DNA of 64,000 bases, from positions 54,870,001 through 54,934,000 of the forward strand of contig OZ024748.1 of NCBI GenBank assembly GCA_964016885.1, read 5' to 3'. Within the stretch, counting starts at the first letter, position 1, and each line of letters opens with the position of its first letter. The translations under genes and the position numbers were made by a program. This document shows positions 5,488 through 57,769 of the stretch, piece by piece. This DNA comes from Eledone cirrhosa. Taxonomy: Eukaryota. Under the pieces are notes generated by a model that worked only from the letters and a program-made list of their open reading frames with translations, did not search any database and had not been told where the DNA came from.

Positions 5488-5630
5488 GGATGTGTATGTA
5501 TACAAAGAGCGGAATATCTAAAAGAGTCAGAGAGAGAGAAAAAGAAAGATAATATGAAAGTATGTAACGGACAGACAATTAGTGTTATATATATGTATAC
5601 GTACATTCATACATACACACACATATACAT

Positions 5631-5731
<101 letters not shown>

Positions 5732-5732
5732 C

Positions 5733-5821
<89 letters not shown>

Positions 5822-5929
5822 TTCTCAACCACTTCTTTGCTCTGGATGTAATTGTAAACTCCACAATTATAGAATTACCATCAATTCCTGTTCTACAGTT
5901 CACTACCACCACCTATACCACTACCACAA

Positions 5930-9140: not shown

Positions 9141-9414
9141 ACCGTGAATACCTCCACCACCACCATAACTATCTCTCCACCATCAGTATTACCTTCATCA
9201 CTATCTCCAACACCAACATTAACCTCCACCACATACATCAACACCACCATACCACCACCACTACAGCCACTACTACTACCACCACTACAGTGACTACTAC
9301 TACTACCACCACCACCACTCCTACCACCACCACCACTACTCCTACTACCACAACCACAATTACTCCTACCACTATCACCACCACGACAATATCCACTATA
9401 TCCACCACCAGCAC

Positions 9415-12400: not shown

Positions 12401-13090
12401 ACCACCAACACCACTATCACCACTACCACAATATCCACCACCAACACCACCACCAACACCACTATCACCACTACCACAATATCCACCACCAACACCACCA
12501 CCAACACCACTATCACCACTACCACAATATCCACCACCATTATCACCACCAACACCACTATCACCACTACCACAATATCCACCACCAACACCACCACCAA
12601 CACCACTATCACCACTACCACAATATCCACCACCAACACCACCACCAACACCACTATCACCACTACCACAATATCCACCACCAACACCACCACCAACACC
12701 ACTATCACCACTACCACAATATCCACCACCAACACCACCACCAACACCACTATCACCACTACCACAATATCCACCACCAACACCACCACCAACACCACTA
12801 TCACCACTACCACAATATCCACCACCAACACCACCACCAACACCACTATCACCACTACCACAATATCCACCACCAACACCACCACCAACACCACTATCAC
12901 CACTACCACAATATCCACCACCAACACCACCACCAACACCACTATCACCACTACCACAATATCCACCACCAACACCACCACCAACACCACTATCACCACT
13001 ACCACAATATCCACCACCAACACCACCACCAACACCACTATCACCACTACCACAATATCCACCACCAACACCACCACCAACACCACTATA
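9415..13090. repeat. Near-perfect 48-bp minisatellite, about 76 copies
   Basis: Sequence lines repeat exactly every 240 nt (5 x 48). The only variant unit (ATTATC) is at 9419, 11723, 11915, 12347 and 12539. Confidence 0.97.
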
Positions 13091-13800
13091 TATATATATA
13101 TTCACCACCACTATCACCACCACCACTATCACCACCACCACCGCCGCCACTATCACCACTATCACCACTATATCCACCACCACTATGCCCACCACCACCA
13201 CTATGCCCACCACCACCACTATGCCCACCACCACCACTATGCCCACCACCACCACTATATCCACCACCACCACCACCACCTCTTTTACCATTAAAATAAC
13301 CTGCTTTGTTTTTCCTTTCCCTGATATCTTCACTTTTTCCTTTCCTTTCCCTAATCCTTCATTTACAAACTTCATTTTTCCATCTTGTGTGATGATCCCC
13401 CTCTCTCTCTCTCTCCATCTTTCTATCTCTTTCTCTCCATATCTGTTTTTTTTTTCTCTCTCTATCTATCTATCTATCTATCTATCTTCTCTCTTTCTCT
13501 CACTCTCTCTGTTCCCCCCTCTTTCCTTGCTATATAGTCTCTCTCTATAGAACCCCAACACATCCCTATTGCTTGTCTCTACTATCTATCTTCTCTCTCT
13601 CTCCGTTTCCCCCTCTTTCCTTGCTATATAATCTCTCTCTATAGAACCCACCAGATACCTATTGCTTGTTTCCACTATCTCTCTCTCATTCTCTCCTTTG
13701 TATTTTCACTTTTTCTTCAGCTCTGACCCTTTAACTTCCTCTCTCGCCCTCTCTCTCCATCTCTCTCTCTCTATATATAGATATATCTCTCCCTCTATAT

Positions 13801-15913: not shown

Positions 15914-15965
15914 AATCAATAAACGCAATGATGGTATAACAAATCGTCCTTGAATTATTATTATT

Positions 15966-16156
15966 GTGAATTGGCAGTATCGGTAGAGGGTCGGACGCCA
16001 TGCTTTCCAGCAGAGAGTTACGCCCCTTTATGGTCTGAGTTCAAATCCCGCCGAGGTTAACTTAACCATTCATCCTTACGGGGTCGATAAAATAAAGTAC
16101 CAGTAATGCACTGAGTAATTGCTGGCCTTGTGCCAATAGTAGAAATTATTATTATT
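15966..16156 (+). mobile_element. SINE family A, near full length
   Basis: A box, B box, body and 3' end present. AATTATTATTATT lies on both sides (probable TSD). Confidence 0.9.
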
Positions 16157-16169
16157 ATATATATATATA

Positions 16170-16349
16170 ACAAAGAAGGTTTTTTGAAGATACTAGGTTA
16201 ACCATAACCCACTAGAATACTCAATACTTAGGGTAGTAGAGTGGGTAATAGGAAAAGAGTCAGAACCCCGACGGCTGAGCTCCGACCGTTTCGATGTAGC
16301 TGTCGAAACAGCCGGAGCTCAGCCGTCGGGGTCCTGACTCTTTTCTTAT
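16170..16349 (-). mobile_element. Fold-back element family P1: 78-nt unique tail plus 47-bp-arm palindrome; probable truncated Penelope-like pLTR insertion
   Basis: Arms 16248-16294 and 16303-16349 with 4 mismatches; flanked by (TA)n; homologous to 56668-56905; carries GAAACGGTC..GCCGTC (hammerhead 3' half). Confidence 0.75.
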
Positions 16350-19602: not shown

Positions 19603-19896
19603 CACATAAACACATACATATATGCACACATGTATATATAAACACACAAACACACACATATATATATAAACACACAAACACATATATATACACACACACA
19701 CATATATATATAAACACACAAACACACATATACATAGACATACATACACACACACATATATATATATACATACATATACATAAACATATACATAAATACA
19801 TACATATATATACATATATATGTGAGTATATATATATATATGTGAGTATAAATGAAAGGTATAGAAAACATTGTAGCAAAAGCCAGTATATGTGAG

Positions 19897-19945
<49 letters not shown>

Positions 19946-27044: not shown

Positions 27045-27230
27045 CGTCCGTATGCGGTAGGCCGTATGAACACTCAATGCCCTCGTAGAGCAGAGTATGA
27101 TATCACAGAAAAAAGAGAATCAGTGTTGCGTCGAAAGGAATCCATTGGACATACTACAATTGTTTCTCTGGCGATTGTAATATGTCCAATAAATTCCTTT
27201 CGTCGCAACACTGATTCTCTTTTTTCTATG
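27045..27230 (-). mobile_element. Fold-back element family P2: ~59-nt unique tail plus 59-bp-arm palindrome
   Basis: Arms 27104-27162 and 27172-27230 with about 6 mismatches. 27103-27129 is identical (reverse complement) to 45619-45645. GTC(C)AATAAATTCCTTTC is shared with the post-cleavage sequence of the 63-kb hammerhead. Confidence 0.7.
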
Positions 27231-32344: not shown

Positions 32345-34930
32345 TTGCTGCCTCTCTCACTGACGTTGCTGCTGCTGCTGCCTCTGTCCCTAGTGCTGCT
32401 GCTGCTGTTGGCTCTGTCCCTAGTGCTGCTGTTGCTGTTGCCTCTGTCCCTAGTGCTGCTGCTGCTACTGCCTCTGTCCCTAGTGCTGCTGTTGCCTCTG
32501 TCCCTAGTGCTGCTGTTGCCTCTGTCCCTAGTGCTGCTGCTGCTACTGCCTCTGTCCCTAGTGCTGCTGTTGCCTCTGTCCCTAGTGCTGCTGCTACTAC
32601 TGCCTCTGTCCCTAGTGCTGCTGTGCCTCTGTCCCTAGTGCTGCTGCTACTACTGCCTCTGTCCCTAGTGCTGCTGTTGCCTCTGTCCCTGGTGCTGCTG
32701 TTGCCTCTGTCCCTAGTGCTGCTGCTACTCATTCTGTCCCTAGTGCTGCTGTTGCTGTTGCCTCTGTCCCTAGTGCTGCTGCTGCTACTGCTTCTGTCCC
32801 TAGTGCTGCTGCTGCTACTGCTTCTGTCCCTAGTGCTGCTGCTGCTACTCATTCTGTCCCTAGTGCTGCTGTTGCTGTTGCCTCTGTCCCTAGTGCTGCT
32901 GCTGCTTTGCCTCTGTCCTTAGTGCTGCTGCTGCTACTGCTTCTGTCCCTAGTGCTGCTGCTGTTTTGCCTCTGTCCCTAGTGCTGCTGCTGCTACTCAT
33001 TCTGTCCCTAGTGCTGCTGTTGCTGTTGCCTCTGTCCCTAGTGCTGCTGCTGCTACTGCTTCTGTCCCTAGTGCTGCTGCTGCTACTGCTTCTGTCCCTA
33101 GTGCTGCTGCTGCTACTCATTCTGTCCTTAGTGCTGCTGTTGCTGTTGGCTCTGTCCCTAGTGCTGCTGCTGCTGTTGCCTCTGTCCCTAGTGCTGCTGT
33201 TGCTGTTGCCTCTGTCCCTAGTGCTGCTGCTGCTGTTGCCTCTGTCCCTAGTGCTGCTGCTGCTGTTGCCTCTGTCCCTAGTGCTGCTGTTGCTGTTGCC
33301 TCTGTCCCTAGTGCTGCTGCTGCTGCTGTTGCCTCTGTCCCTAGTGCTGCTGCTGCTGTTGCCTCTGTCCCTAGTGCTGCTGCTGCTTTGCCTCTGTCCT
33401 TAGTGCTGCTGCTGCTACTGCTTCTGTCCCTAGTGCTGCTGTTGCTGTTGCCTCTGTCCCTAGTGCTGCTGCTGCTACTGCTTCTGTCCCTAGTGCTGCT
33501 GCTGCTGTTGCCTCTGTCCCTAGTGCTGCTGCTGCTGTTGCCTCTGTCCCTAGTGCTGCTGTTGCTGTTGCCTCTGTCCCTAGTGCTGCTGCTGCTGTTG
33601 CCTCTGTCCCTAGTGCTGCTGCTGCTTTGCCTCTGTCCTTAGTGCTGCTGTTGCTGTTGGCTCTGTCCCTAGTGCTGCTGCTGCTACTGCTTCTGTCCCT
33701 AGTGCTACTGTTGCTGTTGCCTCTGTCCCTAGTGCTGCTGCTGCTTTGCCTCTGTCCCTAGTGCTGCTGCTGCTACTGCTTCTGTCCCTAGTGCTGCTGT
33801 TGCTGTTGGCTCTGTCCCTAGTGCTGCTGTTGCTGTTGCCTCTGTCCCTAGTGCTGCTGTTGCTGTTGCCTCTGTCCCTAGTGCTGCTGCTGTTTTGCCT
33901 CTGTCCCTAGTGCTGCTGCTGCTACTCATTCTGTCCCTAGTGCTGCTGTTGCTGTTGCCTCTGTCCCTAGTGCTGCTGCTGCTACTGCTTCTGTCCCTAG
34001 TGCTGCTGCTGCTACTGCTTCTGTCCCTAGTGCTGCTGCTGCTACTGCTTCTGTCCCTAGTGCTGCTGCTGCTACTCATTCTGTCCCTAGTGCTGCTGTT
34101 GCTGTTGGCTCTGTCCCTAGTGCTGCTGCTGCTACTGCTTCTGTCCCTAGTGCTGCTGTTGCTGTTGCCTCTGTCCCTAGTGCTGCTGTTGCTGTTGCCT
34201 CTGTCCCTAGTGCTGCTGCTGCTGTTGCCTCTGTCCCTAGTGCTGCTGCTGCTACTCATTCTGTCCCTGGTGCTGCTGTTGCTGTTGGCTCTGTCCCCAG
34301 TGCTGCTGCTGCTACTGCTTCTGTCCCCAGTGCTGCTGCTGCTACTGCCTCTGTCCCTAGTGCTGCTGCTGCTACTCATTCTGTCCCTAGTGCTGCTGTT
34401 GCTGTTGGCTCTGTCCCTAGTGCTGCTGCTGCTACTGCTTCTGTTCCTAGTGCTGCTGTTGCCTCTGTCCCTAGTGCTGCTGTTGCTGTTGGCTCTGTCC
34501 ATAGTGCTGCTGCTGCTACTGCTTCTGTCCCTAGTGCTGCTGTTGCTGTTGGCTCTGTCCCTAGTGCTGCTGCTGCTACTGCTTCTGTCCCTAGTGCTGC
34601 TGTTGCTGTTGCCTCTGTCCCTAGTGCCGCTGTTGCCTCTGTCCCTAGTGCTGCTGCTGCTGTTGCTTCTGTCCCTAGTGCTGCTGTTGCTGCCTCTGTC
34701 CCTGGTAGTTACGTTGCTGCTGCTGCTGCCTCTGTCACTGACGTTGCTGCTGCTGTTGCCTCTGTCCCTAATGCTGCTGCTGCTGTTGTTGTCTCTGTCC
34801 CTAGTGTTGCTGTTGCTGCTGCCTCTGTCCCTAGTGCTGCTGCCTCTGTCCCTGGTACTTACGTTGCTGCTGCTGTTGACTCTGTCACTGACGTTGCTGC
34901 TGCTGCTGCCTCTGTCCCTGGTACTGCTGT
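32345..34930. repeat. 24/30-bp minisatellite CTGTCCCTAGTGCTGCT(GCT)n.., about 85 units
   Basis: Constant CTGTCCCTAG anchor with a variable (GCT/GTT) run. Confidence 0.95.
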
Positions 34931-35459
34931 TGTTGCTGTTGTATGTGGTGACGTTGGTATGTGGTTGTGTTGCTAGTAATGAGAGTCTAGTCCATGTAGT
35001 CGTGTATATGGTGGGATGAGTTAAAGTAATTGGCGGAGTCATTAGTGTGTTGGATTCAATGCCTTGCGGTATTTGTTTCGTTTCTCTGTTCTGAGTTCAA
35101 ATCCTGCTGAGCTCAAGCTTGCCTTTCATTTGCTCGGAGTCGATAAATAAAGTACCAATGTAGAACGTTGTATTAACAGAATTTGTGATGTAGTTGTCAT
35201 TGTCTAATGGTGATTCAATGGTGAGTTACTGGTGACGTAGTGGTGAGATAGTGGCGATGTTAATGTAGTTGTAATGTAGTGGTTGTGTTCATAAGTGGTG
35301 AGGTACTGGTTATGTCTTGGTGGTGGGGTAGTAGCGATATAGTTGTGACAGAGTTGTGAGGTAGTTGCTGTGTTAGTGATGTGGTGGTAAGGTAAGTGTG
35401 ATGTTAATGATATAGTTGTAATGTAGTGGTTATGTTCATAATGAAGTGATGAGGTACTG

Positions 35460-38805: not shown

Positions 38806-39306
38806 AATAATTGTTTCTACTTTTGGATGTAAGGATGAAAGGCAAAGTTAACCTCGGCGGGATTTGAATTCAGACCATAAAGGGCCGTAACTCTTTGCTG
38901 CAAAGCATGTCGTCCGACCCTCTACCGATACTGCCAATCTACCGCCAATCGCTAATAATAATAATAGTAATTATTATATCATTATTATATCATATATTAC
39001 GTTCTGAGTTCAAATCCCGCCGAGATTAACTTTGCCTTTCATGCTTACGGGGTCGATAAAATAAAGTACCAGTAATGCATTGGGTAATTATGGCCTTGTG
39101 CCTAAAGTAGAAACAATTATTGTTAGCGATTGGCAGTATCGGTAGGGGGTCGGACGTCCTGCTTTGCAGCAAAGAGTTACGGCCCTTTATGGTCTGAGTT
39201 CAAATGCCGCCGAGGTTAACTTTGCCTTTCATCCTTACGGTGTCGAGAAAATAAAGTACCAGTAATGTACTGGTTAATTTCTGGCCTTGTGCCTAAAGTA
39301 GAAACA
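38806..39306. mobile_element. SINE family A trio: minus copy 38806-38946, plus truncated 38997-39120, plus 39129-39306
   Basis: The outer two copies are inverted. They share the private variant TTTGCAGCAAAGAGTTACGGCCC and the 5' flank TTAGCGATTGGC. Confidence 0.85.
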
Positions 39307-39562
39307 AAAAAAGAAAAACGAAAACGAAGAAATAAACGAAAACGAGGAAAAAGAGGAAAATGAAGAGAACAACAACAACAAGGCAAAGAAGAAGAAGAAG
39401 AAGAAGAAGAAGAAGAAGAAGAAGAAGAAGACGAAGAAGAAGAAGAAGAAGAAAGATAAGAAAATGAGGACCAGAAAGAAAAGGTGAAGAAGATTAAAAA
39501 AACAATATGTAATGATGAAATAGGATTTGTTTTGCTATTAATAACTATGATTGGAAAAAATC

Positions 39563-39613
<51 letters not shown>

Positions 39614-39719
39614 TCTCCATGTGCGTTTATTTTCATAATTCCGCACGAGGTGAACTAGCCTGCTTTTAATTTCCCTTTCTGGCATATTTTGGCAGTGATA
39701 CTTTTGGTTATCGTGTTGA

Positions 39720-39800
39720 GCTCTACTGAGGAACGACTCCAGCCGTGACAAATCCCACTGAAAAGTTTCGTGAAATAGTCTTTTTAAGACTATATAGAGC
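39720..39800 (+). ncRNA. Type I hammerhead ribozyme with complete monomeric fold
   Basis: Stem I GCTCTA/TAGAGC (6 bp); core CTGAGGA 39726-39732; stem II ACGA/TCGT with a 31-nt loop; GAA 39772-39774; stem III ATAGTCTT-ttt-AAGACTAT (8 bp); cleavage after A39794 (AUA). Confidence 0.88.
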
Positions 39801-40339
39801 ATTTGTAGTTTTTCCAAATTGAAGGATGAGTATTTAAACTTTCTTTTATTCTGAGTTAAGACTCTACTGGTTTTTACCCTGGATTTCACAAAATCTGTGG
39901 ATAAAATCTCTGTCTTGATTTTTTTTTAATTGAGTTTGAATTATTTTCCCATATCTTACGTTAATTATTTTCCATTTTGACGCTATAGTCACTTATATAT
40001 TATGGAATACTGTTGGCTTCTTGCTCACATTAATTTCTATATTTTCATTTATACCTATCTATATAGATATAGAGAGAGGGAGAAGGAGGGATAGGGAGAG
40101 AGAGGGTGTGAGAGAGAGGGAGGGGGAGAGAGGGAGGGATAGGGAGAGAGGGAGAGAGAGAGAAGGAAAGAGAGAGAGAGAGAGTGAGGGAGAGACAGAG
40201 AGAGAGAGAGGGAGAGTGAGGGCGAGACAGAGAAGGTGAGAGGGAGAGAGGAAGACAGAGGGAGAGATAGATAGAGAGGGAGGGAGAGATAGATAGAGAG
40301 AAAGACAGATAGAAAGCGAAAGATAGGAATCAAACGTTA

Positions 40340-41660
40340 ATGATGTTGATGATGATGATGTTGATGATGATGATAATGTTGATGAATGACTATGATGATG
40401 ATTGTGATGGCTATGATGATGATTGTGATGACTGATGTTGATTGTGATGACTGATGTTGATTGTGATGACTATGATGATGATTGTGATGGCTATGATGTT
40501 GATTGTGATGACTATGATGTTGATTGTGATGACTATGATGATGATTGTGATGGCTATGATGTTGATTGTGATGACTATGATGAAGATTGTGATGGCTATG
40601 ATGTTGATTATGATGGCTATGATGATGATTGTGATGGCTATGATGATTGTGATGACTATGATGTTGATTGTGATGGCTATGATGTTGATTATGATGACTA
40701 TGATGTTGATTATGATGACTATGATGTTGATTATGATGACTATGATGATGATTGTGATGGCTGATGTTGATTGTGATGGCTATGATGTTGATTGTGATGA
40801 CTATGATGTTGATTGTGATGGCTATGATGATGATTGTGATGGCTATGATGTTGATTGTGATGACTATGATGAAGATTGTGATGGCTATGATGTTGATTAT
40901 GATGGCTATGATGATGATTGTGATGGCTATGATGATTGTGATGACTATGATGTTGATTGTGATGGCTATGATGTTGATTATGATGACTATGATGTTGATT
41001 ATGATGACTATGATGTTGATTATGATGACTATGATGATGATTGTGATGGCTGATGTTGATTGTGATGGCTATGATGTTGATTGTGATGACTATGATGTTG
41101 ATTGTGATGGCTATGATGATGATTGTGATGGCTATGATGTTGATTGTGATGGCTATGATGATTGTGATGGCTATGATGATGATTGTGATGACTGATGTTG
41201 ATTGTGATGACTATGATGATTGCGATGGCTATGATGATGATTGTGATCACTATGATTTTGATGACTATGATGATTGCGATGGCTATGATGATTGTGATGA
41301 CTATGATGTTGATTGTGATGGTTATGATGTTGATTGTGATGGTTATGATGATGATTGTGATGACTATGATGTTGATTGTGATGACTATGATGATGATTGT
41401 GATGATTATGATGATGATTGTGATGACTATGATGATGATTGTGATGGCTATGATGTTGATTGTGATGACTATGATGTTGATTGTGATGACTATGATGATG
41501 ATTGTGATGACTATGATGATGATTGTGATGGCTATGATGATGATTGTGATGACTGATGTTGATTGTGATGACTATGATGATGATTGTGATGACTGATGTT
41601 GATTGTGATGACTATAATGATGATTGTGATGGCTATGATGTTGATTGTGATGATGATTAG
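40340..41660. repeat. (GAT)-derived ~21-bp minisatellite with a ~289-bp higher-order duplication
   Basis: GATGTTGATTGTGATGACTAT units; the same variant series recurs 289 bp apart. Confidence 0.9.
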
Positions 41661-42712
41661 TCATTTTCTGTTATGAGTAACTAAAATGTCCGTGTGTATA
41701 CATGTATACGTGTGTGTTAGTATGTATATGTGTGTGTATGTATGTCTTACTATGTATGTGTGTGTAAGTATATGTGTGTGTTAGTATGTATGTGTGTGTG
41801 CATATGTGTGCATATGTGTTAGTATGTATATGTGTGTATGTATATGTGTGTATATGTCTGTATATGTATGTGTATGTATATGTGTGTGTTAGTATGTATA
41901 CGTATGTGTTAGTATGTATACGTGTGTGTTAGTATGTATATATGTGCGTTAGTATGTATATATGTGTGTGTTAGTATGTATATGTGTGTGTTAGTATGTA
42001 TATATGTGTGTCTTAGTATGTATATATGTGTGTGTGTGTGTTAGTATGTATATGTGTGTGTGTGTGTTAGTATGTATATGTGTGTTTGTATGTATATGCG
42101 TGTTAGTGCGTATAGGTGTGTATGCGCGCGCGCGTGTGTGCGTGTGTGCGCGTGCATGTGCGTGTGCGCGTGTGCGTGTGTGTGTGTGCGTGTGTTTGGT
42201 GGTAGGTGTTGGTTTAAGGAAACGAATGCTGCTGCTTCCTGTTTCGTTAGTTCACTATCAACTCTGTCACCCCGTCCCCTCTCTATCTCTCCCGCCCCGC
42301 CTTCTCTCTATAATCATCCTCATCTTTATCATTGTCATCATCCGCTTCTTCCTACTCTTCCCCTCCTCATCATCTGTGACGTCATTAGATGCCATCAGAT
42401 CCCATCAGATGTTGCTATTTCCAGCTTTTTTTTTTTCCGATTGTCACCCGAACACTGAAAATACAACTGAAACACGTATAAGGTGTATAGAGAGTTTGGT
42501 GGGAGGGGGAAGGGGAGGAAAAGAAAGAAAGAGAGAGAAGCAGAGAGGGACATAAATATATACACATGTGTGGGCTGGTGGGGATGGACAGGCGGTATGT
42601 TTGTACGTAATAAATTACCATTGCCTAGATTAAAACAATCCGACTGATCAAATGTCTTGTCAACAACTCGAGGTAGTCGATATTTCTGAGTGTGTGTGGG
42701 TGTGGGTGTGTG

Positions 42713-42754
<42 letters not shown>

Positions 42755-42789
42755 TGTGTGTGTAGAGAGAGAGAGAGATAGAGAGAGAG

Positions 42790-42826
<37 letters not shown>

Positions 42827-42964
42827 TAGAGATAGATAGAGAGAGAGAGAGATAGAGATAGATAGATAGAGATAGATAGAGAGAGATAGAGAGAGAGGCA
42901 GATAGAGAGAGACAGAGAGAGATATTTGTCTGTATTCAACTACACAAAAACACTGATTATATAT

Positions 42965-43287
<323 letters not shown>

Positions 43288-44492
43288 TAGGTACAAATAT
43301 TTATGTTTCAACTTTTCAGATAGGCCGTGTATGTATGTGTGTATGTGTGTGTACGTAGGTATATATATGCATATGTGTGTGTGTGTGTTGTCGTGTACAC
43401 ATATAAACATAAATATGCAGCGTTAGATATATATGTTCGTATGGATGTAGCATTTTCATTTACATAGGCAGGCACTCCTCATACTCTCACAAACACGTGT
43501 CTGTGTATGCATGTGTGTGTGTGCGTGGATGTGTAAGTGTGTGTGAGTGTGTGTGTGTCTGTGTGTGTGAGTGGATGTGTAAGTGTGTGTGTGTGCGTGT
43601 AAGTGTGCATGTGCATCGTGTGTGTGTGTGGATGGATGTGTAAGTGTGTGTGTGTGTGTGTGGATGGATGTGTAAGTGTGTGTGGATGTGTAAGTGTGTG
43701 TGCGTGGATGGGTAAGTGTGTGTGTGTGCGTGGATGTGTAAGTGTGTGCGGTGTGTGTACGCGCGTGTGTGTGTGTTTCTTGTTTAATTTATTTAATTTG
43801 AGTTCTTCAAAGACAGAAACAAAACACCATCGCCGAAATCTTGTGCCAAACATCAACGAGTATTACAGTTGAGAACCTGACAAAAATCTTGCTTATTGAT
43901 ATTGACCCGCGAACAGATTGTGTTTCGAAAGAGCATAGTAACTGATCACATGACATCCCTAGCATTTCACTAGTAACAATTGTCTGAGTGGATCCACAAG
44001 TTTCTTGTGTACATATGTGAATCAATAAGTTTTTATCCTGTCCGTCCGTGTCTGTCTATCCATCCGCCCGTCTGTCTATCTGTCTATCCATCCGCCTGTC
44101 CGTCCGTTCGTCTACCCCCCCCTCCGTGTATCTGGTAGAGGTTTAAACTTCTATGTTGTGTTCATATATTGTGTTCATATATTTGTATGTTGTGTTCATA
44201 TGTGTGTATATGTATCCAGTAGAGGTTAAACTACTGGAATGTTATACATATTTTACAAGTTAAAGGATTTTAATTGTAAATGCTAAGACTGTGACACAAA
44301 CAAATGACCAATAAGTAACTCTAGGTATGAAGCTTATGTTATAGTCAAGCTGGAAAGTCTACAGATTAGTTCGCAAACAAGCATTTTATATTTGACCTCA
44401 TTTTAACATCTGCTGGGCAGCTCACCCCCAGATCATTACATCTGTCTGTTATGCCTACCAGTTTACAGAGGTTTTGACAGAAATGCCACCAT

Positions 44493-44564
<72 letters not shown>

Positions 44565-45544
44565 TGTGTCGGTGTCTGTGTCTGTGTCTGTGTCTGTGTG
44601 TGTGGTTCAGAGGTTAAAGCGTCCACTCCTGATATCGAAAGTTCGCCCCCCTCCCTCTCTCACACAAACGCACGTACATGCTTATAAGTGTATATACACA
44701 TTCATGTATTTATGAATATACATGGCTCTCTCTCTCGCTATACATATATACGTATGTATATATGTACGCACACACACACATATATATATCTATACAAGCA
44801 CATAGACAGAGAGAGCAAGAGAGAGTGGAAGATTATTTACGCCCGGTATGTGATGTATACAAGAGAAAATGGCTGCACAGATGGCTGACTGTCCGCACCC
44901 ACTTCTCTTTTAATAATTTCCGTTCGATTAGTTACATCCGCCACGAACCTTTACAAAATGTATGTAAATTGTATAGGTAAAATTTTATAGTTGTTTAATT
45001 GGAATATCTTTTAGAAGTATAAAAAAACACTACAGACTATCTATGTATATGTGTGTATAGTTTGTTTGGAGTGAGATGTTATTCAAATCTTTTTTTTTTA
45101 TAAATAAATTGTGCGTTAGGAAATGTATGTGATTTCCATTTTTTTCCAAAATTGAACAATATTGTCTATATTGAATGTCTTTTACACATACATACATAAT
45201 GTATGTATGTATGTATGTGCTTCTGGTTTTATAATTTCACAAAGTTTTACCAATAGAGACTCGGTTTCTAACATATACACAAGACTCTCTCATTGGAATT
45301 TACACAACATCAACTAGGTAGATATGTATGTATGCATGCATGTGTAGATATGGATGTTATTGTATGTGTGGATGTGGATGTTTTGAGTTGTATGTGTGCA
45401 TGTGTATATGCTTTGCATCTGTACATGTGTATGTATGGTTGTATATATGTATGTCAACGGCCATCCAAAAGTGTGTAAATATGTATATACACATGTACAT
45501 ATGTATGTATATGTGTATATACATGGATGCATTTGTATGTATAT

Positions 45545-45645
45545 GCGCGGGGGACATAGAAATAGTCGGGCTGGACACCCGATCGCGCGGTTAAACCACT
45601 GGGAGTGAAGGACCCCCTGCAACACTGATTCTCTTTTTTCTGTGA
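45545..45645 (+). mobile_element. GC-rich island related to fold-back family P2 (probable pLTR fragment)
   Basis: Ends in 27 bp identical to the P2 arm terminus; contains GAAATAGTC (hammerhead-3'-half-like) and several short hairpins. Confidence 0.5.
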
Positions 45646-45652
45646 CACACAG

Positions 45653-45705
<53 letters not shown>

Positions 45706-46399
45706 ATATATACGTATATATTGGGTTCTCTTAATTGAAAAACAAAGAAGATCCAGTTTAAATGAATACACATTTATTTTGTTTAATCTATAGAGAACAT
45801 GTTTTATTTAGGTTTTCAGGTCAATGGTGAATTCCTTGTTCACCACATTAAAAATAAATTATTACATTTATCATTAATCACATTACTCTTTTAACATTAC
45901 AAAATTTATGCCACGAGCTGTTTTATGTTCTCTCTCGATCGTTTTACATTTATTTAGTCGAATTCCTCTCGGCCAAAAATATACGTAACTATTTTTAGTT
46001 GTACTGTGATATGTCTTCAAGATCGAATATAATTACAAGAACAAATAGAACCGAGGCACATTTTCATAGTTGTCACTTGTCAGTAGACAGAGGTCAGATT
46101 GTCCTTAAGCATGTAAATTAACTCACCCATCTTGAAATTATCTCCCTTTCTTTTTTATCAGTCGCACAAAACTTACCACTCACAGGTCCTTCAATACTTC
46201 TACAGATCTTACGGACAAGAGCACCTCTACCAGTCCCACGGCCATCACCACCACCACCACCACCATTCTACCGCTCTCGCGACCGTCTCAACGTTTACCG
46301 CTCTCATGACGACGACGGCGGCGACCACCACCACCACTATCGCTGTCACGACCACCACTACTTCTACTGCTGCTCTCACGAACACCACTTGCTCTACTG

Positions 46400-49300
46400 C
46401 TTTCGCAACCACTACCGCTCTCACGACCATCACTACCTCTACCGCTCACGACCACCTCTACCGCTCTCACGACCACCTCTACCGCTCTCACGACCACCAC
46501 TACCGCTCATGACCACCACCACAGCTCTCACGACCACCACCACAGCTCTCACGACCACCTCTACCGCTCTCACGACCACCACTACCGCTCATGACCACCA
46601 CCACAGCTCTCACGACCACCTCTACCGCTCTCACGACCACCACTACCGCTCTCACGACCACCACTACCGCTCTCACGACCACCACTACCGCTCTCACGAC
46701 CACCACTACCGCTCTCACGACCACCACTACCGCTCTTACGACCACCACTACCGCTCTCACGACCACCACTACCGCTCTCACGACCACCACTACCGCTCTC
46801 ACGACCACCACTACCGCTCTCACGACCACCACTACCGCTCTCACGACCACCACTACTACTCTCACGACCACCACTACCACTCTCACGACCACCACTACCA
46901 CTCTCACGACCACCACTACCGCTCTCACGACCACCACTACTACTCTCACGACCACCACTACTACTCTCACGACCACCATTACCGCTCTCACGACCACCAC
47001 TACCACTCTCACGACCACCACTACCACTCTCACAACCACCACTACCGCTCTCACGACCACCACTACGGCTCTCACGACCACCACTACCACTCACGACCAC
47101 CACTACCACTCTCACAACCACCACTACCGCTCTCACGACCACCACTACCACTCTCACGACCACCACTACCACTCACGACCACCACTACCGCTCTCACGAC
47201 CACCACTACCGCTCTCACGACCACCACTACTACTCTCGCGACCACCATTACCGCTCTCACGACCACCACTACCACTCACGACCACCACTACCGCTCTCAC
47301 GACCACCACTACCACTCACGACCACCACTACCGCTCTCACGACCACCACTACCACTCTCACGACCACCACTACCGCTCTCACGAATACCACTACCGCTCT
47401 CACGACCACCACTACCACTCACGACCACCACTACCACTCTCACGACCACCACTACCGCTCACACGACTACCACTCTCACGACCACCACTACCACTCACGA
47501 CCACCACTACCGCTCTCACGACCACCACTACCACTCACGACCACCACTACCGCTCTCACGACCACCACTACCACTCTCACGACCACCACTACCACTCTCA
47601 CGACCACCACTACCACTCACACGACCACCACTCTCACGACCACCACTACCGCTCACACGACCACCACTCTCACGACCACCACTACCACTCACGACCACCA
47701 CTACCACTCTCACGACCACCACTACCACTCTCACGACCACCACTACCGCTCACACGACTACCACTCTCACGACCACCACTACCACTCACGACCACCACTA
47801 CCACTCACGACCACCACTACCGCTCTCACGACCACCACTACCGCTCTCACGACCACCACTATCACTCACACGACCACCACTCTCACGACCACCACTCTCA
47901 CGACCACCACTACCACTCACGACCACCACTACCACTCACGACCACCACTACCGCTCTCACGACCACCACTACCGCTCTCACGACCACCACTATCACTCAC
48001 ACGACCACCACTCTCACGACCACCACTCTCACGACCACCACTCTCACGACCACCACTACCGCTCACACGACCACCACTCTCACGACCACCACTACCACTC
48101 ACGACCACCACTACCACTCACGACCACCACTACCACTCTCACGACCACCACTACCACTCTCACGACCACCACTACCACTCACGACCACCACAACCGCTCA
48201 CACGACCACCACTACTACTCTCACGACCACCACTACCGCTCTCACGACCACCACTACCGCTCTCACGACCACCACTACCGCTCTCACGACCACCACTACC
48301 GCTCTCACGACCACCACTACCGCTCTCACGACCACCACTACCGCTCTCACGACCACCACTACCGCTCTCACGACCACCACTACCGCTCTCACGACCACCA
48401 CTACCGCTCTCACGACCACCACTACCGCTCTCACGACCACCACTACTACTCTCACGACCACCACTACCACTCTCATGACCACCACTACCACTCTCACGAC
48501 CACCACTACCGCTCTCACGACCACCACTACTACTCTCACGACCACCACTACTACTCTCACGACCACCACTACCGCTCTCACGAATACCACTACCGCTCTC
48601 ACGACCACCACTACCACTCACGACCACCACTACCACTCTCACGACCACCACTACCGCTCACACGACTACCACTCTCACGACCACCACTACCACTCACGAC
48701 CACCACTACCGCTCTCACGACCACCACTACCACTCACGACCACCACTACCGCTCTCACGACCACCACTACCACTCTCACGACCACCACTACCACTCTCAC
48801 GACCACCACTACCACTCACACGACCACCACTCTCACGACCACCACTACCGCTCACACGACCACCACTCTCACGACCACCACTACCACTCACGACCACCAC
48901 TACCACTCTCACGACCACCACTACCACTCTCACGACCACCACTACCGCTCACACGACTACCACTCTCACGACCACCACTACCACTCACGACCACCACTAC
49001 CACTCACGACCACCACTACCGCTCTCACGACCACCACTACCGCTCTCACGACCACCACTATCACTCACACGACCACCACTCTCACGACCACCACTACCAC
49101 TCACGACCACCACTACCACTCACGACCACCACTACCACTCACGACCACCACTACCGCTCTCACGACCACCACTACCGCTCTCACGACCACCACTATCACT
49201 CACACGACCACCACTCTCACGACCACCACTACCACTCACGACCACCACTACCACTCACACGACCACCACTACTACTCTCACGACCACCACTACTACTCTC

Positions 49301-50020
49301 ACGACCACCACTACCGCTCTCACGACCACCACTACCACTCACGACCACCACTACCCCTCTCACGACCACCACTACCGCTCACACGACCACCACTACCACT
49401 CTCACGACCACCACTACCACTCTCATGACCACCACTACTACTCTCACGACCACCACTACCACTCTCACGACCGCCACTACTACTCTCACGACCACCACTA
49501 CCACTCTCACGACCACCACTACTACTCTCACGACCACCACTACCGCTCACACGACCACCACTACCACTCTCACGACCACCACTACCACTCTCACGACCAC
49601 CACTACTACTCTCACGACCACCACTACCGCTCTCACGACCACCACTACCACTCTCACGACCACCACTACCACTCTCACGACCACCACTACCACTCTCACG
49701 ACCACCACTACTACTCTCACGACCACCACTACCGCTCACACGACCACCACTACCACTCTCACGACCACCACTACCACTCTCACGACCACCACTACTACTC
49801 TCACGACCACCACTACCACTCTCACGACCACCACTACTACTCTCACGACCACCACTACCGCTCACACGACCACCACTACCACTCTCACGACCACCACTAC
49901 CACTCTCACGACCACCACTACTACTCTCACGACCACCACTGCCGCTCTCACGACCACCACTACCGCTCTCACGACCACCACTACCACTCACGACCACCAC
50001 TACCACTCACGACCACCAAT
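46400..50020. repeat. 21-bp minisatellite CTCTCACGACCACCACTACCG with 19/15-bp variants and a ~1.2-kb higher-order duplication
   Basis: Identical ORF translations at 47528-47743 and 48727-48942 (offset 1199). Confidence 0.95.
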
Positions 50021-50129
50021 GCCTCTAATGTTCTCACAATCATCACTACTTGTACCGCTCTCATGACTATCACTACCTCTACCCTTCTTATGGCCGCCAT
50101 TATACTATCAACATTAAAACGAGAGGGAT

Positions 50130-50344
50130 TCAATACATGGTCGGTTGTTCACCTTGCTAGAATTTGTAGCCAAATATTTCCCCAAACAACATTCTATATG
50201 TTTCTAACGAAGGAGAAGACATGGAAATGTTTAGAGATACACTGTTTTAGAAAAGGACAAAAAATGGACTTGGTGGCCATGGCCGGAAAACGTTTGGTGA
50301 AAGACCAATCATAGTAGTAGCAATGCAATACAGTCAATCAGGTT

Positions 50345-50350
<6 letters not shown>
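50130..50350 (+). mobile_element. Repeat family C copy with (AAC)n tail
   Basis: ACATGGTCGGTTGTTCACCTTGCTAGAA..AGCCAAAT.., followed by (ACA)n. Confidence 0.5.
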
Positions 50351-50375
<25 letters not shown>

Positions 50376-50399
50376 CCACCACCACCCCCACCCTCACTC

Positions 50400-51157
50400 C
50401 TTGGATGAATATCTCCAATATAATTGTTGGTCGCCTTGGAAACATTCCGCCACCTTTGCACTTCTTTATCATCATTTTCATCTCCGACCATCACCCCCCT
50501 CCCCCTCCTCCTCCCCCTACTATCACTAGTATGACCACCACTATCATCATTATCCTCACCATCATAATAGTCATCATCATTATCATCATCTCCACCTTTC
50601 AACCTCCAACCCCGCCCCCTCCCCCTCTCTCTCTCCCACCACCACACCATCACTTTCATCCACATCATGAGGATTATCATCTCCGCTTTTCATCCCTTCA
50701 CTATAACCATCATCATCATCATCATCACCACCACCAACACCACCATCATCATCATCACGATCTTCACCAGTCATCACCCCCCCCCCCCCCCCCCCCTCAC
50801 TCCCACCATCAACTCCACCACCACCACCACCACCATCATCATCATCACGATGTTCCCCATTCATCACCCCTCCCACCACCCACTCCACCACCACCATCAT
50901 CATCATGCACTCCGCCATTCACCTCCACCACCACCACCATCATCATCATCTCGATCTCCTCCATTCATCATCCTCACTTCCACCACCACCACCATCGTCA
51001 TCATCAACTTCGCCATTCATCAACCCTCACTTCCTCCTCCACCACCATCATCATCATCACGATCTTCATTCATCACCCCTCCCACCATCAACTCCACCAC
51101 CACCACCATCATCATCATCATCACGATCTTCATTCATCACCCCTCCCACCATCAACT

Positions 51158-51190
<33 letters not shown>

Positions 51191-51227
51191 TCACGATCTT
51201 CATTCATCACCCCTCCCACCATCAACT

Positions 51228-51260
<33 letters not shown>

Positions 51261-52215
51261 TCACGATCTTCATTCATCACCCCTCCCACCATCAACTCCA
51301 CCACCACCATCATCATCATCATCACGATCATTCCCATTCATCACCTCTCACTTCCATCACCAACTCCACCACCACCAAGATCTTCACCCCTCACTCCACC
51401 TCCAACTCCACCATTATCATCATCATCATCATCATCATGAACCTCGCCATTCACCGCCACACTTCCAATATTACCATGATGATCATCATCACGATCTTTG
51501 CCATTCATTAACCCTCACTTCAACCCCACCACCAAAATCACCATCACCACCACCACTACCACCATCATCCTCATTACGATCTCCATCACCCCCACCATCG
51601 TCATCACCCCGACCCCACCACCACCATTCATCATCCCTCACTACCACCACCACCATACACACCATCCTCATCACGATCTCCACCATTCAGCAGCCCTCAC
51701 CACCACCACCACCACCATTATCACCATCTCCACCACCACGATTTCCACCATTCATCAGCCCTGACTACCACCACCACCATACACACCATCCTCATCACGA
51801 TCTCCACCACCACGATCTCCACCATTCATCAGCCCTCACCACCAGCACCACCACCATTATCACCATCTCCACCACCACGATTTCCACCATTCAGCAGCCC
51901 TCACCACCACCACCACCATTATCACGATCTCCACCACCACGATTTCCACCATTCAGCAGCCCTCACCACCACCATTATCACGATCTCCACCACCACGATT
52001 TCCACCATTCAGCAGCCCTCACCACCACCACCACCACCATTATCACCATCTCCACCACCACGATTTCCACCATTCAGCAGCCCTCACCACCACCACCACC
52101 ATTATCACGATCTCCACCACCACGATTTCCACCATTCAGCAGCCCTCACCACCACCACCACCATTATCACGATCTCCACCACCACGATTTCCACCATTCA
52201 GCAGCCCTCACCACT
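50400..52215. repeat. (CAT/CAC)-derived low-complexity and minisatellite tract
   Basis: Direct inspection. Confidence 0.85.
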
Positions 52216-52659
52216 TCCATGTTATTGCTCTATTTTATATATACTTTATTACTTCGCCCGGTCATATCTTCTTATTTTACACCAAACCTATTCCAATACT
52301 TTCCTATCTCCAACACAGAGACCCCTTTCCCTTTAAATCCCACATCCGGAATTTTCCTGCTCATCACATTTAACCCTTTCCCTCATGCCACCCAATCCCA
52401 ACCAATTCACCTATTTGTTATAATGTATTTGACCTAATTTCCAATGCTCCCTTTATTCAATATTGGTTTCCTTTTTGTCATTAGCCGACAACTGACCTAT
52501 ATTTTAAAGGCAGCAAAGGGAAAGAGAAATAAGATGTTGTGATGTTTATGCCCTTCCGAGGAATATAAACAGTTTAAAGTGGGGTGAAACTGTTTCAGCT
52601 TTTGAGGATTGAAACCTTTTCGTAATCACAAATTCACGTGAGTTATTTAAGTTATAGTA

Positions 52660-52716
52660 AAATAAAGTACCAGTAATGCACTGGATAATTGCTGGCCTTG
52701 TGCCCAAAGTAGAAAC
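52660..52716 (+). mobile_element. 57-bp 5'-truncated SINE family A insertion
   Basis: Perfect 19-bp TSD AGTTATTTAAGTTATAGTA at 52641-52659 and 52717-52735. Confidence 0.9.
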
Positions 52717-52977
52717 AGTTATTTAAGTTATAGTATACATGATGTTGTGAACAATATCACCGTCAGTTATAGGTTTCTAACAGACAAATCAATAGTTCTC
52801 TGCATTTACGATGCGGAGAATGACAAGAGGGCGTCTCCATGTCCTGAGTGTAACAAATATCACAAGGGTATATTTGTTCGAAAGCAATGACTTATAATAT
52901 ATCTCGTCGATGTTAACATCATTTGCGGATATACATCGCTGAAAGGTATTCACAGAAACACTCAATATTATATAATT

Positions 52978-53165
52978 GGTGGTGAGTTGGCAGTATCGGT
53001 AGAGGGTCGGACGCCATGATTTCTAGCATAGTTACATCCCTTTACAGTCTGAGTTCAAATCCCGCCGAGGTTGACTTTGCCTTTCATCCTTACGGGGTCG
53101 ATAACAAAGTACCAGTAATGTACTGGGTAATTGCTGGCCTTGTGCCTAAAGTAGAAACAATTATA
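52978..53165 (+). mobile_element. SINE family A, full-length young copy
   Basis: GGTGGTGAGTTGGCAGTATCGG..GAGTTCAAATCCCGCC..GTAGAAACAATT. Confidence 0.92.
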
Positions 53166-53189
53166 TATATATATATATAGAGAGAGAGA

Positions 53190-53414
53190 GATTAGAGCAA
53201 ACATTACGGGCGCTCTATCTCAAAATTATTTTTGAAAAGCATTAGAAATGCGCAACCGGTAAAACTTAAAACCAAAACTGAATACTAACCAATACTATTA
53301 CTAATTTTTACTTATTCCTAATTAAACTATTTTTCTCTGGGAACAATTTGTCAGTATTTTCTTTTCCGTTTACCAATATATCATAACTCGTGTGTTACAC
53401 CTCTATTCTTTTAA
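53190..53414 (+). mobile_element. Probable Penelope-like pLTR 3' end with a variant hammerhead (53229-53264)
   Basis: TTT-TTGAAAA-GCATTagaAATGC-GCAA-CCGGTA-AAA: U3:A8 covariant core, A13C mutation, palindromic stem III ACCGGT. The last ~29 nt (CTYGTGTGTTACACCTCTATTCTTTTAA then (TA)n) recur at 62935-62963. Confidence 0.6.
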
Positions 53415-53428
53415 ATATATATATATAT

Positions 53429-53617
53429 ATAATTAAGTTAAATATGTAAAATTTGGCTTCGTTTATTATAAATTATAGATAAACGAAGCCAAATTTTACA
53501 TATTTGACTTAATTATTTTACATTAATCCGGAGTAAACAAACCAACCTGCATACTTCGTCGAGTGCTCCAATCTGCATACTAGGTGTCGGTAAACAATCA
53601 ACATATACTCAAAATTT
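53429..53617 (+). mobile_element. Fold-back element P3: 38-bp-arm palindrome plus ~100-nt unique tail between (TA)n tracts
   Basis: Arms 53429-53466 and 53479-53516 with 1 mismatch. Confidence 0.7.
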
Positions 53618-53631
53618 ATATATATATATAT

Positions 53632-54060
53632 TGAGTTAAGAACTCAGAGTAGTCTCTTACAATTAAATAGTTCTAAGAAAAAAGCTTTTCCGAGCCGAAC
53701 AATATAATTGAATAAACAAGAGAGATGAACACTAATATAAACATACATGTGTTCGAATCGTAAGGACCAAATTTGCTAGGTTAAAAAAATACTAAGTACA
53801 GCAATGTTGTTTGTTATTCTTAACTTTAAATATTAAATTAAGAAAAATTAAGAAAAATAACAAACCTATATTGGGCAAAACGCCTGCCCAATATAGGTCT
53901 GTTATTTCTCTTAATTTTTCTTAATTTAATATTTAAAGTTAAGAATAACAAACAACATTGCTGCAGTTAGTATTTTTTTAACCTAGCAAATTTGGTCCTT
54001 ACGATTCGAACACATGTATGTTTATATAAGTGTTCATCTCTCTTGTTTATTCAATTATAT
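53632..54060 (-). mobile_element. Fold-back element P4: ~70-nt unique tail plus 176-bp-arm palindrome between (TA)n tracts
   Basis: Arms 53702-53877 and 53885-54060, 7-nt loop AAACGCC, few mismatches. Confidence 0.8.
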
Positions 54061-54742
54061 ATATATATAATATCGTGCAAACTCCAAATTTTGTTCTATC
54101 GCGGATGTTGACCGACCGTCGCAGCTACGATTTCGTCGCAGCTACGATTTTACTAACCTTCCAATCGTGTATATATATATATATATATATACTGTGTGTG
54201 TACATATATATATATACGTGTAATGTGTACATACAAATATACACGTACACAGTACGTGTATATATATATATATATACACGCACTATACATATATTGTACA
54301 CAAACACTATATATATATATATACACACACAGACATGCACATACACACACACACTATGCACACACACACACACGGCCATACACACGAGACGTCGGCGCAG
54401 TTTCTGTCTAACAAATTTCACTGAATGCATTAGATGAACTCTAGGTGATGTTATATGACACTTGCCACAGTGTCATCTAGCGGAATCGAACTAGTATTAA
54501 TTTGGTCTTTCATCTGTCTGATGGATGATAAAATCAGTATCTGTCAGGTCTTAAGGTCGGTAATAGCTCCTATTCTTTACCAACAGATTTTCTGGTCAAT
54601 ATACTGACAGGATAAGTAACGTACTTCACTAAATGATTTACAGTATTTAATGCTACACTGTACAACGGAATATATAAATAGATATTTTGGTCATTGCTCT
54701 ATGTATAGATAGAAGAAAATATTGTTTTTTTTATAGATATTA

Positions 54743-55095
54743 CTAGCATAGTACCCGTCAAAAATGATGGGGTGGATACTATTAAATGCAAAAATCAACA
54801 AGAAGAAAAGACAAAAAAAAAAAATCAACTAAAACAATGTTTAATTTTATAATTTTATTATAACATTCTATATGAAAACTGAGAAGTGAGGTATGTGTGT
54901 GTGGGGTGGGTGTGAGGGAGGGGTGTGTGTGAATGTTCGTGTGTGTTTTTGAGGAGCAATATATACGGGGTGAGGGGGGGGGGAGGGGTGAGAGTGAGTG
55001 AGTCGATCGTCAGTTTTGACCACGAGTGTTCCAGTTATTCAAAGTATGGAACAGAAGACAGGAAAGACAATTCATACATACGAACAAACACATGC
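54743..55095 (-). mobile_element. Non-autonomous Helitron-like element (3' end clear, 5' end uncertain)
   Basis: Minus strand ends CCCATCA-TTTT-TGACGGG-TACTATG-CTAG|T: a GC hairpin 7 nt before CTAG followed by T, the Helitron 3' signature. Confidence 0.65.
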
Positions 55096-55950: not shown

Positions 55951-56347
55951 GGATTTTATTTTATTTTATTTTATTTTTTCTTAGATGGCATTTGACTCTT
56001 ATGAGTTCTTTCGCCTTTTTGTCAGGTTTTGTTTTTTGTCCTGCAGGGTGTCTAAAATCACCCTCCTCAGCAAGTAAACTTGACACAAACCTACAAACAA
56101 CGACACAAGCACAAATACAACAGAAAGTCAAGACAACAAACAAATAGACAAAGAGCGATGTACAAAGGACCTGTTTCACCCATCACTATGGAGCTTGATC
56201 CGCTTTTGATCATATCAATGAATCTATATACTGCACAATAACACAGTGCTTATATATATATATGTAAAAGGTAAACAGAAATAACACAATCGGTACAGTA
56301 TATGGAAGGAATATATTAGGTTAAAGTTTGAACTAGCAGGAAGAAGG

Positions 56348-56383
56348 TCTTAATGTTTCGGACGCTAGTCCTTCATCAGAAGA
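56348..56383 (-). ncRNA. Minimal type I hammerhead ribozyme (PLE-type) within a ~210-bp island between (TA)n tracts
   Basis: TCTT-CTGATGA-A-GGAC-TAGC-GTCC-GAAAC-ATT-AAGA. Stem III is ACAT where palindromic ACGT is expected (one substitution). Confidence 0.7.
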
Positions 56384-56627
56384 AAGAATGAGAAATAGGA
56401 TTGATTAAAGGGGCGGGCGGGGTAGAATTGGAAAAAATGTCTTTAGATAAAAATAACAGGTCCATTCATGTTGATATCTCATATATATATATATATACAA
56501 CGCTAGCATGGGTTGGACGGTTTTGTCCCACTTGAGGCGAGATTGGTTGGGAGACCGTGTCTCGCTCGTACAGAATTGTCTCTAGCAGGTTTCCTACGGC
56601 TGGATGTATAAACACAAACTTGTATAG

Positions 56628-56667: not shown

Positions 56668-56905
56668 ATAGGAAAATGTATGACCCCAACGGCAGATGTC
56701 AAGCCATTTCGACGGCCATTTCTGGACTAAATTAGAATTTTTAGCATGGCTAAAAATTTTAATTTAGTCCAGAAAAAGCCGTCGAAACGACTAGAGCTCT
56801 GCCGTCGGCATCATACATTTTCCTATTACACACTCTACTAACCTAAGTATTGAGTACTCTGGTGCGTTATGGTCCATATGGTTCCTTACCACACCTCCTT
56901 CGTTT
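56668..56905 (+). mobile_element. Fold-back element family P1, second copy: 78-bp-arm palindrome plus 79-nt tail
   Basis: Arms 56668-56745 and 56749-56826; the tail is homologous to the reverse complement of 16170-16247; flanked by (TA)n. Confidence 0.78.
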
Positions 56906-57769
56906 TATATATATATATTTACTCTTGGAGCAACAGATATGAACTTTCCCGATATAAGGCATGACTCTCTTTGATTATTTTTTATATGAATATTGATTGT
57001 TTGTTCTTGTATCTCATTCTGTTATTTTGCCCGAGAAAATATCTATATGTGTCATAAAGCGATGCGCACATTTGGTTATTTTTTCATATCCAATTGAGTT
57101 CTTAGCACGTGGCTTGCATTCTTGCCAGAGTTCAACGACCTGCGCATGTATTGTTTTTGGCGGTAGCCTCCTTCCTCCCATTTTCGGGACAGTGTGAGAT
57201 TTTCTTTAGAACTGCTGGACTAACAACCTAGCAGTCCCCTCAAGCACTGATGGTGATTATCGCTAAATATTGATGTTGATTTGGTTATCAATATTAATGT
57301 TATTGGGTACCCACTGAAGATTTATAAGAGCCCACTTGAATAAGTATCTGTTGATCTTATACAAGCTTTTACATAATTTGGTAAAATTTCACCCAACTTG
57401 TAGAAATCTTATAATGAAACGAGTCGTCTGGAAAATGATATATTTGATATATCTTATATGAAATAATACAGCCAATTATCCACACAATACAATATAGTTA
57501 GCACCCCAAACGATTAATTGGGAATATACTCAGGTATTTCCTAATGTTTGTTGAGTGAGTTGGAATTTGGCCGGAGTATCGCTTTTAGCTTTCTCCGATT
57601 ATGTATTTATATATATATATATATACATATATATATACATATATATACATATATATATTTGTAGCAATGTGTTGGTTTATACTAGAACCTTTGTCCTGTG
57701 TCAGGTATTTCGATATTAATCCGCTAGAGCCGCCCCCACCCCTCCACATTATCATCCTTGACAACAATA

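Follow-up and report, generated by a model that had tools for sequence, protein, structure and literature searches.

A type I hammerhead ribozyme motif with an 8-bp helix III in a high-copy dispersed repeat

Introduction

The closest structural match to the hammerhead motif analysed here, within the literature surveyed, is provided by type I hammerheads in which helix III is large and which were described in the pLTRs of Penelope-like elements (PLEs) from fungi and protists (Cervera and De la Pena 2014, PMC4209133). According to the sections of PMC4209133 that deal with them, every deposited PLE has hammerheads in its pLTRs, mostly as single motifs from truncated copies, and their proposed role is to release the element from a longer precursor by cutting; the motif of a Serpula PLE cleaves at 0.16-1.97 per min. 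The metazoan PLE hammerheads have been described as minimal motifs that are dimer-dependent and have no helix III or a tiny palindromic one, with an extra base between 9 and 10.1, a G10.1-C11.1 pair and often a longer stem II (PMC4209133). Most PLE insertions are truncated on the 5' side and retain a single terminal repeat, from which retrozymes can arise (preprint 10.64898/2026.07.22.740005). A lizard PLE was shown to nick AT-rich DNA, with reverse transcription beginning inside the RNA downstream of the hammerhead, and this hammerhead was dispensable for insertion in vitro (PMC11167929). Naiad PLEs prefer (TA)n targets yet lack canonical hammerheads (PMC8557442). Penelope-like families are common to coleoids (PMC8967140), and active ones have been reported in Octopus vulgaris (PMC13282606), findings that bear on the DNA studied here only if its 190-bp SINE-like repeat is indeed an octopus SINE.

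Animal type I hammerheads have been described as dimer-dependent or as weak monomers because their helix III has 1-2 bp or is absent. A helix III of 8 bp is unusual for these animal motifs, and a large animal repeat family carrying it would test why retroelements keep hammerheads. No description of a self-cleaving hammerhead repeat family in cephalopods or octopus was found in a literature search of titles and abstract starts, and the family considered here may already stand in the figures or supplements of PMC4209133 or PMC7229834, in the supplement of PMC13282606, in Repbase or in Dfam. In the current study, we analysed a 64-kb stretch of eukaryotic DNA (the window), 49% of which is masked as tandem repeats, and the repeat within it that carries a type I hammerhead.

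Results

Both strands of the window were scanned with a type I descriptor requiring Watson-Crick stems of at least 4/3/3 pairs, which gave one match on the + strand, at 39720-39800, and none on the - strand. The descriptor found no match in 300 block-wise dinucleotide shuffles (500-base blocks), the loose setting included, and permitting G-U pairs added two overlapping weak matches at one place on the - strand of the window. The match at 39720-39800 contains CUGANGA, GAAA and NUH in type I order, with every core base present, stems I, II and III of 6, 4 and 8 bp and the cleavage triplet AUA (Table 1). It is thus a genuine type I hammerhead motif, and the complete hammerhead with an 8-bp stem III and an AUA site that had been reported in a preliminary description of this DNA was recovered in all its parts by the descriptor scan. 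The AUA triplet is also found in a natural viroid hammerhead, where it was the slowest of the four triplets tested after purification (PMC1636495). No stem I extension with a conserved tertiary contact was seen at the motif. Rfam gave no match over the whole window at the gathering score or over 39700-39820, and 16 weak matches over 39400-40100 at E up to 10, none of them a hammerhead and the best from the TA run. The long loop II together with helix III may explain why no Rfam hammerhead was matched, and a match to a covariance model is a convenience test and not the definition of a hammerhead.

Table 1. Coordinates in the window of the parts of the hammerhead motif and of the repeat that carries it.
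Feature	Position	Strand	Remarks
Stem I, 5' strand	39720-39725	+	6 Watson-Crick pairs with 39795-39800
Core C3-U4-G5-A6-N7-G8-A9	39726-39732	+	N7 is G in the window copy
Stem II	39733-39736 / 39768-39771	+	4 Watson-Crick pairs; A10.1-U11.1, where G-C is usual
Loop II	inside 39733-39771	+	31 nt between the strands of stem II
G12-A13-A14	39772-39774	+	part of the block 39772-39794
Stem III	39775-39782 / 39786-39793	+	8 pairs including A15.1-U16.1; loop of 3 U
H17 (A), triplet AUA	39794	+	predicted cut 39794/39795
Stem I, 3' strand	39795-39800	+	position 1.1 is 39795
Repeat copy with the hammerhead	39611-40056	+	5'-truncated; family 3' end near 40050-40056
(AT)23 microsatellite	39565-39610		adjoins the repeat copy on its 5' side; likely insertion target
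TA-rich stretch (imperfect) followed by a (GA)n microsatellite	40057-40313		3' of the repeat copy
3'-end-only fragment of the hammerhead repeat	19830-19899	-	TA runs on both sides

The folding of the motif was assessed through ViennaRNA pairing probabilities, for the 81 nt of the motif and for longer contexts. In the 81-nt fold, stem I (P 0.83-1.0) and stem III (P 0.67-1.0) are predicted to form and stem II reaches only about 0.01, and in the longer contexts the probability of stem I falls to about 0.2. Relative to the minimum, the best fold compatible with a hammerhead costs 3.5 kcal/mol more at 37 C and 5.8 kcal/mol more at 15 C. This predicted loss of stem II is due to two competing helices, one that traps the core (39726-39730 with 39737-39742) and another that joins 39756-39762 with 39767-39772. 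The core-trapping helix uses G39730 (N7) and G39742, which are both minority alleles of the repeat family and would therefore account for part of the misfold. When both were barred from pairing, stem II reached about 0.3, which is still not dominant, and the full fold about 0.01. Nearest-neighbour models leave out Mg2+ and the tertiary contacts of the core, so that the predicted misfold lowers the expected activity rather than excluding it. Overall, owing to the misfolding of stem II, the window copy is predicted to be a poor cleaver and would likely cleave weakly or not at all.

These results qualify several points of the preliminary description. All three helices are intact on paper, as it held, and stem II is nevertheless predicted almost never to form; similarly, the expectation that the motif should fold as a monomer stands for helix III, which forms in a single copy, and not for stem II, which loses to its competitors in the prediction. 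The term non-palindromic was imprecise for stem III, which is an inverted repeat around three bases, so that pairing between two copies is possible as well (-18.9 kcal/mol for the cofold vs -6.7 kcal/mol per hairpin), though no dimer is required. The ability to cut any + strand transcript narrows to transcripts that read through the motif, which could be cut in cis. Besides, a candidate pseudoknot of 6 bp between 39748-39753 in loop II and 39801-39806 was discarded; it does not hold with the majority alleles at 39750 and 39753, for which no compensating change is visible among the substitution rows listed.

The hammerhead is one module of a dispersed high-copy repeat of about 450 bases, and the picture of a stand-alone island is not supported: in a single sequencing run (X1), 2,084 contigs match 39611-40068. 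Parts of 39611-40050 are present in five public sequencing runs under two organism labels. Four of the eight runs listed (X1, X4, X5 and X6), which may not be from the species of the window, were aligned to 39611-40068 at a likeness of at least 80%, and the matching records comprised, besides those of X1, 45 contigs in X4, 24 in X5 and 2,332 reads in X6. Up to 86 contigs carry one and the same variant of the repeat. The summed depth in X1, a rough measure that does not equal copy number, was about 4,000-8,000 over the 5' half of the motif and 40,000-55,000 over its 3' half, with peaks of up to 298,000 near 40000 (the longest single pieces giving only 4-22). From the depth of reads and contigs, we roughly infer that the repeat is present at hundreds to thousands of copies. 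The copy in the window, which is the only one there to bear a hammerhead, has a GC content of 33%.

The depth climbs from 5' to 3', towards 39980-40025, though not smoothly (Spearman 0.80 over 28 of the 29 bins, the last partial bin left out), and the 3' 100 bp of the repeat are covered several times more deeply than the ribozyme region. A jump in depth at 39755 reflects the diverged loop II and not a start of copies at the cut site, and sister copies reach at least 180 nt upstream of that site; a loose contig end in X5 runs about 67 nt further upstream of 39626. The 3'-end-only fragment at 19830-19899 shares 79% identity with the repeat over 58 nt (E 1e-5), partly in low-complexity sequence. 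The depth gradient and this fragment support 5'-truncated dispersed copies with a common 3' end, a property that LINEs and SINEs also have. An X5 contig of depth 695 matches 39949-40053 only, with 336 unrelated bases upstream. None of the nine joints listed is head-to-tail (3' end back to 5' end), and the contigs in which they were sought are short.

As to the flanking DNA, the 5' side of the repeat copy is (AT)23, the 3' side fails a strict (TA)4 and the 19830-19899 fragment has TA runs on both sides, while a TA run on either side was found for 2 of 21 copies of another repeat and for 10.5% of random intervals; the boundaries of the hammerhead repeat used in this comparison were partly chosen at TA runs. 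Some other candidate signals were rejected. Read ends in X6 at 39817/39820, 39939, 39963 and 40035 were considered as element ends or ribozyme cuts, and 5 of the 6 shown lie at AATT sites, which identifies them as restriction cuts of a RAD library; X6 is such a library, and its depth profile is shaped by restriction sites. A candidate internal repeat linking the island's start to 39940-39990 did not reach significance (p = 0.55). A first motif pattern had no match among metagenome and viral contigs, and a second one matched four metagenome loci, of which the three distinct ones lack the CUGANGA core and match over about 25 nt only, as expected by chance.

The alleles of the repeat family were followed in 40 of the 132 substitution rows, without phase. 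Among these rows, ten places within the motif vary, namely N7, seven in loop II, 10.1 and 1.1, and none of them is an invariant core base. The probability of at most two of the ten falling in stems plus core is 0.018, and that of none in the core alone 0.18, again for the rows listed. The canonical CUGAUGA is found in most copies, with U at N7 in 74% of the X1 depth and in 310 of 414 X6 reads, and 39742 is A in 98% of the X1 depth and in 384 of 465 X6 reads. The change T39795C (position 1.1) accounts for 44% of the X1 depth, 501 of 994 X6 reads and 94% in X5, and A39733T (position 10.1) for 7% in X1 and all of X5. Both break core-adjacent pairs unless 39725 (2.1) and 39771 (11.1), respectively, change too, and no such compensating change appears among the 40 rows of unphased alleles. 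Indels of the family occur at 39780-39781, in the U run of stem III. The four minority alleles that the window copy has within the motif are all at free positions (P = 0.035).

Open frames of at least 45 residues in the unmasked DNA numbered 218, and the 148 longest were scanned against Pfam. None of these 148 matched a Penelope reverse transcriptase, a GIY-YIG domain or another retroelement protein, one had a weak match to MCM3_WHD below the cut-off, and the scan indicated no exon near the ribozyme. No open frame starts after the ribozyme, all three + frames being closed. At about 57000-57560 on the - strand there are broken frames, one of which was scanned without a Pfam match; their translation resembles, by eye, what we take to be a C-terminal remnant of a LINE reverse transcriptase. 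Three minisatellites of low complexity (9393-13280, 32346-34938 and 46408-50018, with units of 48, 30 and 21 bp) give open frames of more than 1,000 codons, with no coding evidence. A dispersed SINE-like repeat of 190 bp, presumably an octopus SINE, has 21 matches in the window at 73-95% identity, several of them tandem or nested, and its copies include 38829-39310, 4219-4559, 15960-16145 and 52972-53160. Self-complementary stretches of about 100-127 bp (84-87%) at 16248-16349 and 27104-27230 are possibly MITE-like, and 16156-16294 also matches 56782-56917.

A relaxed scan detected a second, textbook minimal hammerhead of PLE type at about 56350-56385 on the - strand (core C3 at about 56379), for which 0.06 matches are expected per shuffled window. 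It has an extra base between 9 and 10.1, a 4-bp stem II with G10.1-C11.1, a tetraloop and no helix III, and it sits in a 220-bp island between TA runs (about 56260-56480), which is likely a solo pLTR. The repeat at 39611-40056 has no significant similarity to this element, since 1,990 of 2,000 shuffles score as well, and the similarity at the 3' ends is not significant either (1,800 and 219 of 2,000 shuffles).

Discussion

The motif and its repeat share features with several described systems. Like the hammerheads of fungal and protist PLEs, as these are characterised in PMC4209133, the motif has type I topology and a large helix III, resides at a repeat end, could in principle fold as a monomer and shows no recognisable loop 1-loop 2 contact. 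It differs from them in lying in what is likely an animal genome, beside TA microsatellites and not telomeric as far as seen, in its loop II of 31 nt, and in having no linked PLE ORF here. With the metazoan PLE hammerheads (Poseidon, Neptune, Cercyon; described in PMC4209133 and PMC11167929) it has in common that single motifs occur in truncated copies, that the ribozyme lies shortly upstream of the 3' end of the copy and that the likely target is AT-rich, while the 8-bp helix III, the A10.1-U11.1 pair and the lack of an extra base between 9 and 10.1 set it outside the minimal metazoan type. The animal non-LTR retrozymes (Cervera and De la Pena 2020, PMC7229834; preprint 10.64898/2026.07.22.740005) likewise carry a complete motif of type I, with 6 bp in stem I and 4 bp in stem II, in a non-coding unit of low GC content that measures a few hundred bases and is present at high copy number; no tandem arrangement or head-to-tail joint was seen here, and helix III has 8 bp as against the 1-2 bp reported for them. 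Finally, the amniote intronic type I hammerheads (RECK, CTCL, DTNB; PMC6155905) are also single type I motifs in non-coding DNA, and they are described as single-copy and conserved at orthologous loci, whereas the present motif belongs to a large and variable repeat family.

A hammerhead within a high-copy repeat is most naturally read as a ribozyme of a retroelement. We consider it probable that the repeat is the 5'-truncated pLTR of a Penelope-like element, or of a non-autonomous derivative of one, which landed in a TA microsatellite, and that the hammerhead is a module of this element that is predicted to cleave poorly here. The rising depth towards the 3' end and the 3'-only fragment are as predicted by 5' truncation, and the copies, like those of pLTRs, continue upstream of the cut site. 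The listed variation, spread over eight free positions and two core-adjacent pairs and sparing the invariant core, is also consistent with a Penelope-like origin, as is the occurrence of an unrelated minimal hammerhead of PLE type between TA runs in the same window. Against it stand the lack of a Penelope reverse transcriptase or GIY-YIG domain linked to the repeat among the 148 of 218 frames scanned, the absence of the traits of animal PLE hammerheads (the minimal form, the longer stem II and G10.1-C11.1), the 3' flank that fails the strict (TA)4, and the changes T39795C in about half of the copies and A39733T in some, for which no compensating row is listed. The lack of significant similarity to the minimal-hammerhead element of the window, and a stem II that stays weak even with both minority alleles barred from pairing, also count against it. 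Since fungal and protist PLEs have a long helix III (as characterised in PMC4209133), this trait is compatible with a Penelope-like origin.

It is unlikely that the repeat is instead the solo monomer of a non-LTR retrozyme, whose tandem unit would, after transcription, be cleaved at every hammerhead, closed into a circle by RtcB and inserted again. The full type I motif, the lengths of stems I and II, the lack of an ORF, the 33% GC and a size near the range of 150-450 bp agree with such an origin; the hammerheads of mussel retrozymes are likewise described without the usual loop 1-loop 2 nucleotides (PMC7229834), and solo monomers are reported as common (preprint 10.64898/2026.07.22.740005). 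A fixed 3' end, to which the depth profile and the 3'-only fragment point, speaks against it, as do the single copy in the window and the lack of head-to-tail joints among the nine listed, although the latter is a weak argument because short contigs could hide such a junction. The retrozyme and Penelope-like origins overlap in any case, since retrozymes were argued to derive from pLTRs (preprint 10.64898/2026.07.22.740005). It is similarly doubtful that the repeat represents a SINE-like class of its own, apart from minimal PLE motifs and tandem retrozymes, that is, a family of short non-coding retroelements in a likely cephalopod genome, dispersed and not in tandem, with a monomer-competent long-helix-III hammerhead of the fungal and protist form, at hundreds to thousands of copies and homing to TA microsatellites. 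If this were true, each sense intronic insertion would be a ready-made cutter of transcripts that needs no dimer.

In a further, rather improbable origin, a SINE-like element or one derived from a LINE UTR, with a hammerhead competent as a monomer, is moved by a non-Penelope reverse transcriptase. The abundant 3' 100 bp would then be a tail shared with a partner LINE or with other SINEs, in agreement with their excess of depth over the ribozyme region and with the X5 contig that shares only 39949-40053. The ribozymes of LINE clades are HDV-like. They have been reported at the 5' ends of some clades (PMC5786205), a precedent for self-cleavage in LINEs; such ribozymes mark the 5' end, whereas the copies here continue upstream of the cut, and the literature surveyed ties animal type I hammerheads to PLEs and retrozymes.

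A chance look-alike, inside a repeat of another structure whose family never cleaved, would account for the missing Rfam match, the weak stem II with A10.1-U11.1, the unexplained T39795C and the lack of shown covariation, and is very unlikely given that shuffled windows gave no match, that the majority of the family has the canonical CUGAUGA and that the listed variation avoids the core. The least credible origin is a domesticated host regulator that cuts read-through pre-mRNA or lncRNA, for which there is a precedent in the domesticated intronic type I hammerheads (PMC6155905) and with which the intact core and stems and the placing of all four minority alleles at free positions would fit, since a young insertion would also be intact, these same alleles create the misfold, the window copy is one of very many, and neither an exon nearby nor a stem I extension with a conserved tertiary contact was found in the window.

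The predicted misfold of the window copy and the many variant copies make mobile-element debris more likely than a switch of gene control, and the single copy in the window is likely an ordinary, decaying fragment of a mobile element. Hammerhead cleavage leaves a 5'-OH and a 2',3'-cyclic phosphate. In a Penelope-like element, the role of the ribozyme would be to cut the element's own read-through RNA, so that a long precursor may be cleaved into unit RNAs with these ends. Reverse transcription, carried out by Penelope-type machinery that would act in trans, may be primed at a fixed 3' end that lies some 260 nt downstream of the cut site, with variable 5' truncation, and the window copy would then have undergone neutral decay. 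If copies of the family cleave alone, host transcripts would gain many potential cut sites from them. Downstream of the ribozyme, further hairpins are predicted at 39852-39925, where the words of stem I and stem III recur as repeats of 8-11 nt (39856-39869), and after cleavage the 3' strand of stem I could pair with this region instead.
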